Shown here: piece by piece, positions 4,789 through 11,302 of the stretch | How the letters are laid out: every line of letters starts with the position of its first letter | Position numbering within the stretch: position 1 is the first letter of the stretch | Source: an uncultured delta proteobacterium | GTDB taxonomy: Bacteria > Myxococcota > Myxococcia > Myxococcales > Anaeromyxobacteraceae | Direction: 5' to 3' | Assembly: GCA_963766715.1 (NCBI GenBank) | Contig: CAVYBH010000011.1 | Coordinates: 181,957 to 245,956, forward strand | DNA: 64,000 nt | Made by a program: the position numbers and the translations under genes | Notes under the pieces: generated by a model | What the model was told of the DNA's origin: nothing | Database searches by the model: none | What the model saw: only the letters and a program-made list of their open reading frames with translations

Positions 4789-5095
4789 ATGTACGCGGTG
4801 ATCCAGACCGGTGGGAAGCAGTATCGCGTCTCCAAGGGCGACAAGCTCCGCGTGGAGCTGCTCGAGGGAGAGGTGGGGAAGAAGCTGGCCTTCGAGCCGC
4901 TGCTCGTCGGCGGCGAGGGCGAGGCCAAGGTGGGCAAGCCCACGGTGGCCGGAGCGGCCGTCGAGGGCGAGATCGTCGCCCACGGGCCGGCACGCCAAGG
5001 TGATCCACTTCCGCAAGAAGAAGGAAGGCTGGACCAAGAAGCGCGGCCACCGCCAGCCGTACACCGAGCTCGTCATCACCGCGGTCCGCGGCTAG
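4789..5095 (+). CDS. rplU: 50S ribosomal protein L21 (frameshift near 4985)
   Basis: [15 protein letters not shown]-terminus; KVIHFRKKK...[12 protein letters not shown] in the next frame. Confidence 0.96.
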
Positions 5096-7281: not shown

Positions 7282-7300
7282 GATAATAGGAATCGTTATC
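7282..7300. promoter_or_regulatory. Fur box-like operator
   Basis: GATAATAGGAATCGTTATC matches the Fur consensus GATAATGATAATCATTATC at 15/19; extended TGATAA...TTATCA dyad; about 60 nt upstream of the porin ATG. Confidence 0.75.
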
Positions 7301-7362
7301 AAGATGACGGAGAGGCCGGAGTGGTCCGCATGGCGCGGGCCCCGCGCCTCCCGGTGGATTCC

Positions 7363-8692
7363 ATGACCCGACACCTCGCGCTCTCCCTCCTGGCGGCCAT
7401 CTCCCTTCCCGCGCTCGCGCAGGAGACCCCGGCGGTCCCCTCCGCCCCCACCTCGACGCCGGCCGCACAGGCTCCCGCGCGGCAGCCGCGCAGACGCCCC
7501 CGCCACCCCTGCCGCCGCGGACGACCGCCCGGTCACGCAGGCCGACCTGAAGGCCCTGACCGAGGAGGTCCGCCGGCTCAAGCTCGAGCTCTCCGTCCCC
7601 GACGTGATCCAGTTCGGCTCCTACTCCGGGGCCGGCGTGGGCGCGTCCCGGGCCCACTTCCAGCCGAAGGGGCTCTCCATCGGCGGCTACGGCGAGGTCG
7701 TCTACACGAACTACGCCGACAACCGCGCCGACTTCGCCGAGGTGCTGCGGCTCGTCCTGTACGTGGGCTACCGCTTCAACGAGATGATCGTCTTCAACTC
7801 CGAGATCGAGTTCGAGCACGGAGCGAAGGAGATCGGCATCGAGATGGCCTACTTCGACTTCATGTTCACCGACGCCATCAAGCTCCGGGTGGGCAACGTG
7901 CTCGTGCCGGTGGGCTTCCTGAACGAGAACCACGAGCCCATCTTCTTCTACGGCGTCTACCGGCCGCTGGTGGACCGCTACATCATCCCCACCACCTGGA
8001 ACAACATCGGCGGCGGGCTCTACGGCGAGTTCGGCCCGCTCCGCTACAAGGCCTACCTGATCGCCGGCCTCGACGTGTTCGGCGACGAGGCGCTCGAGGC
8101 GGCCTCCTGGGTCCGCAACGGGCGCCAGGGCGAGTTCGGCAAGGCGAAGACCTGGGCCGGCGTGGCCAACGTGAACGTGGACGTCGGGCCGGCCACCTTC
8201 GGCGGCAGCTTCTACGGCGGCAACGCGGGGCAGGGCTACACCACCGACCTCGGCGTGAAGGTCTCCCCCACCGTCCTCCTCGGCGAGATCCACGGCCTCG
8301 TGGCCTGGAAGGGGCTCACGGCCCGGGCCCTCATGTCCTGGGGCTCGCTCTCCCAGTCAGGCCAGGTCTCCGAGATCCTGGGCAAGGCCCCGGAGGCCTA
8401 CATCGGCAGCCGCGCCTGGGGCGGCTACGTCGAGGCGGGGTACGACGTCCTGACCCTCGTCGGGTCGTCGATGTCGCTCTCCCCCTTCCTGCGCTTCGAG
8501 GCCCTGAATCCCCAGGCGGCCGTCGAGGGGGCGGGCGTGCTCGACCCCAGCCTGAACCAGCGGGTGATCACCACCGGCATCGACTTCAAGCCCATCCCCC
8601 AGGTGGTGGTGAAGGCCGACTGGCAGCAGATCACCAGCCAGGGTCCGGCCACGCTTCGTCAGTGGGACCTGGGCATCGGGTTCGTGTACTAG
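7363..8692 (+). CDS. outer-membrane beta-barrel/porin with N-terminal coiled coil (frameshift near 7480)
   Basis: Signal peptide MTRHLALSLLAAISLPALA; ADLKALTEEVRRLKLEL coil; IGGYGE, FNSEIEFEH; amphipathic strands; C-terminal LGIGFVY. Confidence 0.85.
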
Positions 8693-8699
8693 GAACGAC

Positions 8700-9254
8700 A
8701 TGCGAACCGGTCTCGCGATGGCCGCGGCAGTCGGGATGCTCTGGGCGTCGGTCGGACGCGCCCAGGCTCCCGCCGCCGCGCCGGGTGGCCCCGACGTGCT
8801 GCGCTCCGTCTTCCCCGAGGCGGAGCGCTTCGACTCGGACGACGTGCTGCTCACGCCGGAGATGGCGAAGCGGCTCGACGACCTGGCCCGCTCCCACATC
8901 CCGGAGCGGATGGTCACGTTCTACACGGCGCGGCGCGGCCCCGCGGTGCTGGGCTACGCGGTCCTCCAGTCCCACGTGGTCCGGACCAAGCGGGAGACGT
9001 TGCTCGTGGCCTTCGAGCCGGACGGGCGCCTGAAGCGGATCGTGGTGGTCGCCTTCCTGGAGCCCCCCGAGTACAAGCCCTCCGAGCGCTGGCTCGCCCA
9101 GTTCGCCGGGAAGGGGCCGGCCGATCGGCTGGCGGTCGGCGACGACCTGGCCTTCATCTCCGGCTCGACGCTCTCGGCGCGCGGCGTCGCCGAGCAGTCG
9201 CGCTGGCTCCTCCAGGCGCTCCGGATGGCCCGGGAGGCGGGGAAGGTCCGATGA
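8700..9254 (+). CDS. exported FMN-binding (flavinylation-target) domain protein
   Basis: Signal peptide; FLEPPEY, WLAQFAGK and ISGSTLS, a variant of the [S/T]GA[S/T] flavinylation motif. Confidence 0.8.
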   Translation: MRTGLAMAAAVGMLWASVGRAQAPAAAPGGPDVLRSVFPEAERFDSDDVLLTPEMAKRLDDLARSHIPERMVTFYTARRGPAVLGYAVLQSHVVRTKRETLLVAFEPDGRLKRIVVVAFLEPPEYKPSERWLAQFAGKGPADRLAVGDDLAFISGSTLSARGVAEQSRWLLQALRMAREAGKVR

Positions 9255-9739
9255 GGTTCCTCGTCCAGCCGGCGCCGGAAGCCCTGGAGCGGGCGCGCCC
9301 GCCGGTGAGGGCCTTCCTCGGCTTCACCGCGCTGCTCCTGCTCGCCTGGGTGGCCTCGCGCGCTGCGCACGGGGCGCTCACGCCGTCGGGACTGGAGCGG
9401 ATCCTGGAGCCGGCGCCGGGAGAGACCCTCGGGCCGGTGGCGCTCTGGGAGGAGGTCCACCAGGGCGCCTTCCTCTACGGGTTCCTCCTGCTCGCCGTGG
9501 GCTCGCTGCTCGCGGTCTGCCCGGTCTCCCGCGCCGTTCGCGGCGCCCTGCTCGGCGTGGCGACGGCGGCGGCGCTCGTCGACCTGGGCGCGCCCTTCCT
9601 GCCGCTCGCCGTTCCCGGCTTCCCGGGCTGGGCCGCGCTTCGCATCGGCGCCTTCCTCGTCGCGGTGGGCGCGCTGCTCGCCATGACCGGGCTCTGCTGG
9701 GCCAGGTTCGGCCGGGAAGCGCGGGTGTCCGGTGGTTGA
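9251..9739 (+). CDS. uncharacterised 4-TM membrane protein
   Basis: Four hydrophobic segments; LWEEVHQGAFLY; ATGA overlap with upstream gene. Confidence 0.75.
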   Translation: MRFLVQPAPEALERARPPVRAFLGFTALLLLAWVASRAAHGALTPSGLERILEPAPGETLGPVALWEEVHQGAFLYGFLLLAVGSLLAVCPVSRAVRGALLGVATAAALVDLGAPFLPLAVPGFPGWAALRIGAFLVAVGALLAMTGLCWARFGREARVSGG

Positions 9740-10256
9740 TCCGCGCATCGGCCGCTTCTCCGGCCCCATCGCGTCCTTCGTGGCCATGGTGGCGGTGGTG
9801 ATGGGCACGGCCGCCGTGCTCTTCGCCCGGAAGATCGGCTTCGACCCCGCGCACGTGCAGGCCTTCTACCTGGGATCCGAGGCCACCTTCGCGCCCCCGC
9901 GCTCGCTGGCCGGATTGCTGGAGGTGGCGGTTCCCCACCTCCTCGCCATCCCGATGCTCGTCTTCGTGACCCTGCACCTGGTGGCCTTCGTGAACCGGGC
10001 GCGGCGGCGCCCGTTCGCGATCGTGGCCGGGATCACCTCCGCCTGCGCGGCGGTCGTCATCGCCGGCGGCTTCGCCATCCGCTTCGCGTGGCCGGCGCTC
10101 GCGCCCCTGAAGATCGCCGCCTTCCTCGGCCTGGAGGGGACGATGCTCGCCTGGCTCGGGCTGCTCGCCGCGGCGATCCTGCCGGGAACGCGCGACGAGG
10201 CGCGCCCCGGCGCCGTCACGGGGTCGGAGGGCGCACCACCTCGAGCCGTCCGCTGA
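9732..10256 (+). CDS. uncharacterised 4-TM membrane protein with two His in one helix
   Basis: FYLGSE, GLLEVAVPHLLAIPMLVFVTLHL; overlaps previous gene. Confidence 0.78.
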   Translation: MVDPRIGRFSGPIASFVAMVAVVMGTAAVLFARKIGFDPAHVQAFYLGSEATFAPPRSLAGLLEVAVPHLLAIPMLVFVTLHLVAFVNRARRRPFAIVAGITSACAAVVIAGGFAIRFAWPALAPLKIAAFLGLEGTMLAWLGLLAAAILPGTRDEARPGAVTGSEGAPPRAVR

Positions 10257-11302
10257 GCGCGGGCGAGGTCGAGAGCGCGTTTCCGGAGGTCACGATCACC
10301 GCCTCCGCCCCGCTCCTCGAGGCGAGCGCGAGCCCGTCCTGCGCCGCCCAGGACGAAGATCGCCTTCCCCAGGACCTCGGCCTCGAGCGCGGTCGGGGCG
10401 AGCACGCTCACCTGGCGGCTGGCGGTGGCCGGCCAGCAGGTCCGGGTGTCGATGACGTGGTGGTAGCGCCGGCCGGAGTCGACGAAGAAGCGCTCCGAGT
10501 CCCCGGTGGTCGAGAACGCCGCGTCGGACACGTCGAGCCAGGCGAAGGGCGCGCCCTCCTGGCCGCGCGGGTCCCGGATCCCCACGCGCCACGGGCGTCC
10601 GTCGCGGGTGCCGGCCGCGTAGAGGTCGCCGCCCGCCTGGACGAGGAAGTCGCGCAGCCCGCGCCGGCGAAGCTCGGACACGGCGCGGTCGACCGCCCAG
10701 CCCTTCACGAGGCCGCCCAGCCCCACCTGCATGCCGGTGCGCCGGAGCCTGGCCCGGCAGGGGGCGCCCTCGTCCGGGGAAGCGGCGGGCTCGACCTCGA
10801 GGTCCCGCCAGGAGACGAGGCGGCAGGCGGCGGCGACGGCCTCGGCGGAGGGGACCGCCGCCGGCTCGCCGTCCCCGAAGCGCCAGACGCCGCGCAGCGC
10901 CGCCCAGGTCGGGTCGAAGAGGCCGCCGGTGCGCTCCGCGCCGTCGCGGCCGGCCCGCAGGACCTGGCAGAGGTCGCCCGGCAGCTCCACGAAGCGGCCG
11001 CTCCCCGCCGCAGCGTTGAGCGCGGAGAGCGGGGACGCGGGGCGCCACTCGTTCATCACCTCGTCCACCCGGTCGAAGATCCGGAAGGCGGCCTCCACCC
11101 CGGCGGCGGCCTCGGCGGGCGGTGCGCCGGCCACCGCGACCGAGACCACGGTGGACATGGACGGGCGGGTCTCGGCGTGGAGGGCCCCCGCCCGGGCGGG
11201 CGTCGCGACCGGGGCAGGGGCCGCGGCAGGGGCGGGCGGAAGGCTGGCGCAGGCGACCGCGAGCCAGGGCAGGAGGAGGGGAGCGAGGGGGACGCGGCGC
11301 AC
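10216..11302 (-). CDS. apbE: FAD:protein FMN transferase, lipoprotein (frameshift near 10340)
   Basis: Lipobox LAVAC; GLFDPT, LGGLVKGWAVD, QAGGD, WRVGIRDP, STTGD, RYHHVID; C-terminus LALASRSGAEAVIVT...PTP* in the shifted frame. Confidence 0.92.

Follow-up and report, generated by a model that had tools for sequence, protein, structure and literature searches.

How does an exported flavoprotein receive electrons when none of the recognised membrane donors of such proteins is encoded beside it? The question is raised by a five-gene locus at positions 7282 to 11302 of a 64,000-nucleotide stretch of contig CAVYBH010000011.1 (the whole of this stretch is called the window here, and coordinates are those of the window), from an uncultured, Anaeromyxobacter-like host whose closest named loci are 63-83% identical. 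Two small four-helix membrane proteins of the locus, TM1 and TM2, both belong to PF27139 (Aq_1264_TM), a family without known function. The answer to which the evidence inclines, if modestly, is that they form a Fur-repressed b-type cytochrome that feeds an RnfG-like carrier flavinylated with flavin mononucleotide (FMN), which would reduce Fe(III) for the transporter FeoB.

The locus opens with a Fur-type box (GATAATAGGAATCGTTATC, 7282-7300, no strand assigned) that agrees with the E. coli consensus at 15 of 19 positions and lies 62 bp upstream of the start of the first gene. This gene (7363-8692, plus strand) encodes an outer-membrane beta-barrel, or porin, with a signal peptide and a C-terminal aromatic residue. 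On the same strand follow the genes for the exported RnfG-like FMN-binding protein (8700-9254), TM1 (9251-9739) and TM2 (9732-10256); the FMN-protein gene and TM1 are joined by an ATGA overlap, and TM1 and TM2 overlap by 8 bp. The gene for an ApbE flavin transferase with a lipoprotein-type N-terminus (LAVAC) lies on the minus strand (10216-11302), converges on the operon and overlaps TM2 by 41 bp. A preliminary description of this DNA had noted the box, four tightly coupled genes and the convergent apbE; the coordinates and overlaps bear out the arrangement, and the box is genuine by its score.

The PF27139 units and their histidines

Local Pfam and NCBIfam scans gave no family match for TM1 or TM2. 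The Atlas assigns TM2 to PF27139 at 0.95 and TM1 at 0.97, and among the matches listed PF27139 is the precomputed domain on 119 of 120 for TM2 and 116 of 120 for TM1; a JGI label of "cytochrome bd subunit 2" on one of 120 matches was not taken as evidence. The two proteins are paralogues by profile comparison (E 8e-21 with broader profiles). The TM2 profile matches 379 clusters at 50% identity, and the best 150 of these were drawn on for sequence comparisons; the phyla with most PF27139 clusters in the Atlas are Myxococcota, Bacteroidota, Calditrichota and Pseudomonadota, though few members carry a taxon. The preliminary description recognised no known donor class in these proteins, and Pfam scans agree: PepSY, MsrQ, DsbD, NapH, Nqr/Rnf and DUF4405 domains are absent from TM1 and TM2 at E<=1, and 108 family members scanned at E<=0.05 show no known donor domain, the best being Ni_hydr_CYTB, below cut-off, in 5 of the 108. 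It had also named a match to a characterised, unrelated family as a refutation; the family found is the uncharacterised PF27139. The "unrecognised membrane module" of that description can now be named as two PF27139 paralogues with a cytochrome-like histidine pattern.

Five histidines occur in the two proteins, which had both been described as histidine-bearing, and just three are conserved: H70 of TM1 (51 of 51), and H69 and H82 of TM2 (107 and 108 of 108 aligned units). In single-unit genes of the family these residues come together, as E-x-x-H-x-H with a third His 13 residues past the second. The first His is found in 35 of 108 aligned units, all of which also carry the other two. Split pairs divide the set, the first His residing in unit A (E67 and H70 of TM1, an E-x-x-H without the other two histidines) and the remaining two in unit B (TM2, with E64, H69 and H82 on helix 2). 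The same partition is kept by all 17 natural two-unit fusions, chosen by length from the best 150 of the 379 clusters; their invariant histidines are exactly H72 of unit A and H229/H242 of unit B. Longer fusions were not found among 7998 candidates in a word search, which is a weak test; 34 long or odd-length matches that were scanned include five unit-ApbE fusions and one unit-DtxR/FeoA fusion, some of which may be read-through of adjacent genes. In a quick tree of 84 units all 35 B-type units group (Shimodaira-Hasegawa-like approximate likelihood ratio test, SH-aLRT, 95); those of type A, from split pairs and fusions, fail to group (long branch), and the tree does not establish a single origin of the A/B split.

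Two histidines spaced 13 residues apart on one helix are the pattern of b-type cytochromes, and TM1 and TM2, to judge from their sequences, are likely to bind haem. The AlphaFold2 model of TM2 has four helices, a conserved periplasmic loop and both histidines on helix 59-87 (predicted local distance difference test, pLDDT, 92), and the fusion P0254 is predicted as one confident eight-helix chain (pLDDT 89, predicted template modelling score 0.85). By the positive-inside rule, H70 and H69 should lie near the periplasm and H82 about 20 Å deeper. A haem held between neighbouring units would fit, because the two histidines of H-x-H point opposite ways if the helix is ideal.

Other members of the family suggest what the unit can do elsewhere. 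In some PF27139 relatives the periplasmic loop contains an inserted cytochrome c (CxxCH), placed directly before H-x-H (hhalign E 2.5e-12; L098:6835-7557, L099:7274-7996, L065:747-1469, L144:1055-1759, L145:1483-2208). They occur in 3 of 151 genomes around a Treponema locus and in at least 2 of 251 genomes of the phylum, and adjoin genes for ResB/CcsA (cytochrome-c maturation), rnf-like genes, or genes for a di-haem peroxidase or cupredoxin. Their automatic name, elongation factor-1 alpha, is a misnomer that was not taken as evidence (the Atlas gives PF27139), and a Treponema match, L014, turned out to be an ordinary rnfG. The relatives with inserted cytochrome c support an electron-transfer role for the unit. 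A sister operon (L147:3-2351) combines a BBP2 porin, an H-x-H unit without the deep His and, by eye, an exported look-alike of the FMN protein that has no flavinylation motif; no Fur box is present within the 3.3 kb read.

Fur boxes and conserved neighbours

Of 401 genomes sampled from the phylum, at least 45 have a PF27139 unit (host included; a strict first look), and all 45 are among the 101 that carry the FMN-protein family. The 44 relative loci (host excluded) comprise 36 split pairs or fusions and eight single units. The FMN protein is adjacent to the unit in 42 of the 44, the misses being one contig end and one genome, G285; other neighbours are the porin (38 loci), apbE (37), fur (19), DtxR/FeoA (19), feoB (18) and bfd (11). 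Since 34 of the 44 loci come from one family, these counts are not independent. The simplest form of the operon is box, unit and FMN protein (L053). The absence of such co-occurrence had been named in advance as a refutation of the preliminary description; the survey found it conserved. A tblastn search of plasmids with P0273 gave no match.

Boxes were scored against the 19-position E. coli consensus. By this measure the site at 7282-7300 is the only match of at least 13/19 in the window, 5 of 8733 windows of 480 bp reach 14/19 genome-wide, and just four loci in the 4.2-Mb genome score at least 15/19. Two of the others precede iron genes: fur-feoB-dtxR/feoA (17/19; contig C12, L001) and bfd-bacterioferritin, or bfd-bfr (16/19). 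The last (15/19; contig C1) stands before a small beta-barrel gene of MetA_deg type, below cut-off (L003:3999-4924), that is frameshifted in the host assembly; a similar gene adjoins fur in L141. Among relatives, a box of at least 14/19 lies upstream in 33 of 37 testable loci, at the same place as the host box, versus 0 of 598 control windows (in the other 7 of the 44 the upstream region is cut by contig ends). Repression of the operon by Fur is likely on this evidence, and Fur would very probably bind the box. An operon of fur, feoB, a small Cys-rich protein and a DtxR/FeoA fusion is likewise conserved, with a box of 15-17/19 (L011:851-4353, L058, L059 and others); in the genus of the window the porin operon is split off from it and retains its own box.

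Reading was extended to 20 further FMN-protein loci, namely a second one in G285 and 19 from among the remaining 56 genomes. A single unit is present in 11 and no unit in nine. In eight of these nine the slot of the unit is filled by a different, small three-helix membrane protein with four aligned histidines, spaced 18 and 14 apart (L124:6150-6578, minus strand; L127:8067-8582, plus; L135:7830-8312, plus; L137:6323-6796, minus; also L129, L133, L139 and L141). Four loci built the profile of this replacement family and four more were found with it at E<=3e-27; it has no Pfam or NCBIfam match over cut-off, and its similarity to DUF4405 is marginal (E 0.11 and 0.37, in two of five genomes tested). 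The ninth is G285 (L063, L136), in which porin, FMN-protein and apbE genes without a membrane gene lie on one contig, and a split pair without an FMN gene, its unit B in two pieces, lies on another behind fur-feoB-dtxR/feoA. Single-unit operons of other families have a lipoprotein of about 350 residues (DUF4856 marginal) upstream of the porin (L131:9389-10435, L134:9227-10261, L140:3963-5036), possibly an iron-binding partner.

The flavin carrier and the proposed electron path

A 42-row profile (A5) of the FMN-protein family matches the RnfG chain 9eri_G at E 1e-11, and the motif of that chain is ITGST. The preliminary description had reported ISGST and pointed to a Thr codon at 9168-9170 for flavinylation; the motif is present, with ACG as that codon, and reads S-G-S-T rather than [S/T]GA[S/T]. 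Its Gly and Thr are invariant in 42 of 42 rows, and 33 of 42 relatives have [S/T]GAT. The suggested profile check succeeded for ApbE (231 bits, PF02424) and fell short for the FMN protein (FMN_bind 13.3 bits, under the cut-off of 22), a cut-off passed by four of four relatives scanned. The exported protein is likely to be flavinylated on this Thr. The host porin just passes for Porin_O_P (21.1 bits, cut-off 20.9), and one relative reaches 41.9 bits.

No second apbE turned up in the host genome, which is 85% complete. The host enzyme has Thr, His and Glu at the positions of S240, H256 and D284 in the solved T. pallidum-type chain, Ser-His-Asp being the catalytic triad of ApbE as described in PMC12052999. 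The catalytic His is thus kept, the triad Asp is Glu, and the Thr of Asp-x-x-x-Thr is Lys; the canonical form is found in five of six single-unit loci. Across the split-pair clade these two changes (window 10343-10400) co-occur with loss of an Asp at -6 in the substrate (9150-9170), and enzyme and substrate there are possibly a co-adapted pair.

Porin and apbE carry one frameshift each, near 7480-7495 and near 10340. In same-genus relatives both frames are unbroken; in a related contig, indels at 7436-7493, at the porin break, together restore the frame, and related contigs show single gaps on pieces that span the apbE break. The host assembly has scattered indel errors, rplU (ribosomal protein L21) and feoB being frameshifted as well. 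Because those genes are equally broken, the relatives are intact and related contigs restore the frames, the two breaks are likely assembly errors, and a pseudogene reading of the locus was rejected as unlikely. The frameshifted rplU is at 4789-5095, and gatB and an ion-channel gene seem broken at their ends (about 1560 and about 3420). Contigs of relatives in RNA run X20 span all five genes with a small word share, and were not used as expression evidence.

The proposed path is as follows. TM1 and TM2 would assemble into one membrane b-type cytochrome, in which one haem would sit between the subunits, held close to the periplasm by H70 of TM1 and H69 of TM2. H82 of TM2, about 20 Å deeper, would bind a second cofactor at the cytoplasmic side, where electrons would enter; their source is probably quinol, because no NAD(P)H (reduced nicotinamide adenine dinucleotide, phosphorylated or not) or Fe-S subunit is encoded. 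The periplasmic protein, its Thr loaded with FMN by ApbE, would accept electrons from the outer haem and pass them to Fe(III), or to chelates of it, that the porin lets in. The resulting Fe(II) would be taken up by FeoB; many relatives have feoB within this operon, and the host has it elsewhere in the genome under a separate Fur box. The preliminary proposal of import and periplasmic reduction of Fe(III) under iron limitation finds partial backing in genome context, through co-occurrence, boxes and linkage to feoB, fur and bfd; we infer that haem is bound, that flavin is attached, that Fe(III) passes the porin, and in which direction and to which acceptor electrons flow.

Several observations weigh against this scheme. 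Foldseek with the TM2 and fused models gave no match at E<=0.001, and fold searches return generic four-helix bundles, the best by VIA (Z 9.2 and 9.7) being soluble helical bundles. TM1 has no partners for H82, and a simple heterodimer offers no classical four-His dihaem site. The host motif, A-F-I-S-G-S-T versus D-x-x-[S/T]-G-A-[S/T], is non-canonical; the Asp at -6 is missing in 35 of 35 pair-type substrates and present in 17 of 19 single-type ones; and in the split-pair clade all 29 readable ApbE rows have Glu-x-x-x-Lys where Asp-x-x-x-Thr is canonical (4 of 33 are unreadable, and one genome is counted twice). The porin is missing from some complete loci (L053, L060, L061). The 18 of 44 loci with feoB nearby are almost all of one family and hence non-independent, and the 11 distant single-unit loci have feoB near one and fur near three, and in 2 of 10 a box of at least 14/19 precedes the first recognised gene, against 3 of 199 controls. 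Finally, the relatives with inserted cytochrome c lack the deep His, most of them keeping H-x-H, and Fur boxes are absent from the 3 kb read at each of their loci; the unit is therefore not iron-specific.

The last point bears on an alternative that is unlikely in our estimate, namely that the same Fur-controlled chain of cytochrome and flavoprotein has another acceptor or direction: oxidation of Fe(II), reaction with haem or another periplasmic substrate, or service as an iron-sparing stand-in for a cytochrome c link. Units with inserted cytochrome c, beside maturation genes or a di-haem peroxidase and free of Fur boxes, would suit it, as would the confinement of feoB linkage largely to one family and the frequency of bfd as a neighbour (11 of 44 loci). 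The dedicated porin in 38 of 44 loci fits uptake instead, and so does co-transcription behind fur-feoB-dtxR/feoA. FeoB transports Fe(II), so that where iron is ferric it needs a reductase.

It is quite unlikely that the PF27139 pair transports metal as a permease, or binds it at a site in the membrane, through E-x-x-H and the two other histidines, with the flavoprotein drawing its electrons from elsewhere. The conserved Glu next to His, the lack of any match to a cytochrome family or fold, the G285 pair behind feoB without an FMN gene, and the L147 unit paired with an FMN-like protein that has no flavinylation motif could all be so explained. Glu64, however, is replaced by Lys in 25 of 108 units with both histidines retained; two histidines 13 apart on one helix recall a cytochrome, some relatives have cytochrome c inserted, and the slot of the unit can be filled by a four-His membrane protein. 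That the flavin branch is altered or dead in the split-pair clade, with an ApbE that no longer flavinylates or a decaying host copy, is a very unlikely reading of the triad changes (Asp to Glu, Thr to Lys), the lost -6 Asp, the Ala-to-Ser change at -1 and the two frameshifts, given the invariant Gly and Thr (42 of 42), the GST of RnfG 9eri, the retention of apbE beside 37 of 44 loci, the L21 and feoB frameshifts with frames restored by related contigs, and the minor effects of an Asp-to-Ala change in a model substrate (section 8 of PMC12052999).

Relation to known systems

The cytochrome and carrier proposed here resemble flavinylation-linked cytochromes of iron assimilation, yet they fall outside every listed donor class. 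As set out in the main text of Meheust et al. (2021, PMC8238504), donors for flavinylation are NapH-, MsrQ-, PepSY-, DsbD- and Nqr/Rnf-like, with P19 clusters in addition; the words "porin", "FeoB" and "Anaeromyxobacter" are absent from that main text, and its supplementary cluster list may contain these loci unassigned. With the PepSY-like (FoxB/VciB type) and MsrQ-like systems as portrayed there, the locus shares apbE, an exported carrier (here predicted to be flavinylated), a membrane protein with histidines, probable control by Fur and neighbouring genes for Fe(II) transport. It differs in that the membrane protein is PF27139, a four-helix family whose three histidines belong to one kind of helix and are here shared out between two genes; in having an RnfG-like carrier rather than DUF2271, a small porin rather than a TonB receptor, and FeoB rather than VIT1; and in lacking an NAD-binding domain. 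With RnfG/NqrC subunits and two-subunit Nqr/Rnf-like systems it shares homology of the exported protein to RnfG, but the operon has no RnfD/NqrB or NAD-binding partner, is under Fur-type control, and its RnfG-like protein carries an export signal. DUF4405/FezC proteins, small and apbE-associated, have been shown to bind haem b, and FezC is modelled as forming haem sites by dimerising (Huang et al. 2024, PMC11334425, as presented there); DUF4405 has four central histidines in a six-helix frame, and TM1 and TM2 have no match to it. No description of the operon or of PF27139 function was found in search listings of the open-licence literature.

A more distant kinship has to be considered. Like heme-copper oxidase subunit I, MAPEG and styrene oxide isomerase (SOI) units, PF27139 has four helices with His at the outer end of helix 2, and single-unit members read H-F-H, as oxidase helix X does. 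The single-unit profile matches helix X with hhalign E 0.0056 over 115 columns (reversed control 0.018), and the oxidase's own repeats match one another less well (E 0.089 and 0.32). The match is confined to the single-unit profile, similarity is weak overall, two-unit fusions misfit a three-unit ring, and the deep His is extra in PF27139. A PDB sequence search with the unit profile gave nothing below E 0.15, and VIA gave Z 7.4-8.0 to 7deg and 6.8 to mPGES1 (root-mean-square deviation 2.0, 87 residues), within the range of unrelated bundles. SOI is not among the VIA and Foldseek matches listed, which does not exclude similarity. The sequence link to the oxidase repeat is no more than suggestive. 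Single-unit oxidase homologues were reportedly treated by Pei et al. in 2014, and PF27139 may already be listed there. SOI itself binds haem b at a subunit interface via one His, according to PMC11374702. As a conjecture, rather doubtful in its entirety, PF27139 would be a free-living relative of the four-helix oxidase repeat and now a modular membrane cytochrome, with interface haems, a homo-oligomer split into ligand-sharing A and B, and an exchangeable periplasmic carrier (flavinylated under Fur for iron, an inserted cytochrome c in respiration); the ApbE and substrate motif of the split pairs would be a private pair that changed together.

In the account of Meheust et al. (PMC8238504), just 3635 of 6230 genomes with flavinylation genes but without a characterised system were assigned. 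PF27139 is a further candidate family of membrane donors for flavinylation, and gains a testable role. Its single, split and fused forms, with their exact partition of histidines, make the cofactor ligands testable by three point mutants. If the proposal is true, soil and sediment bacteria would possess a small, TonB-free, envelope-spanning system of reductive iron uptake.

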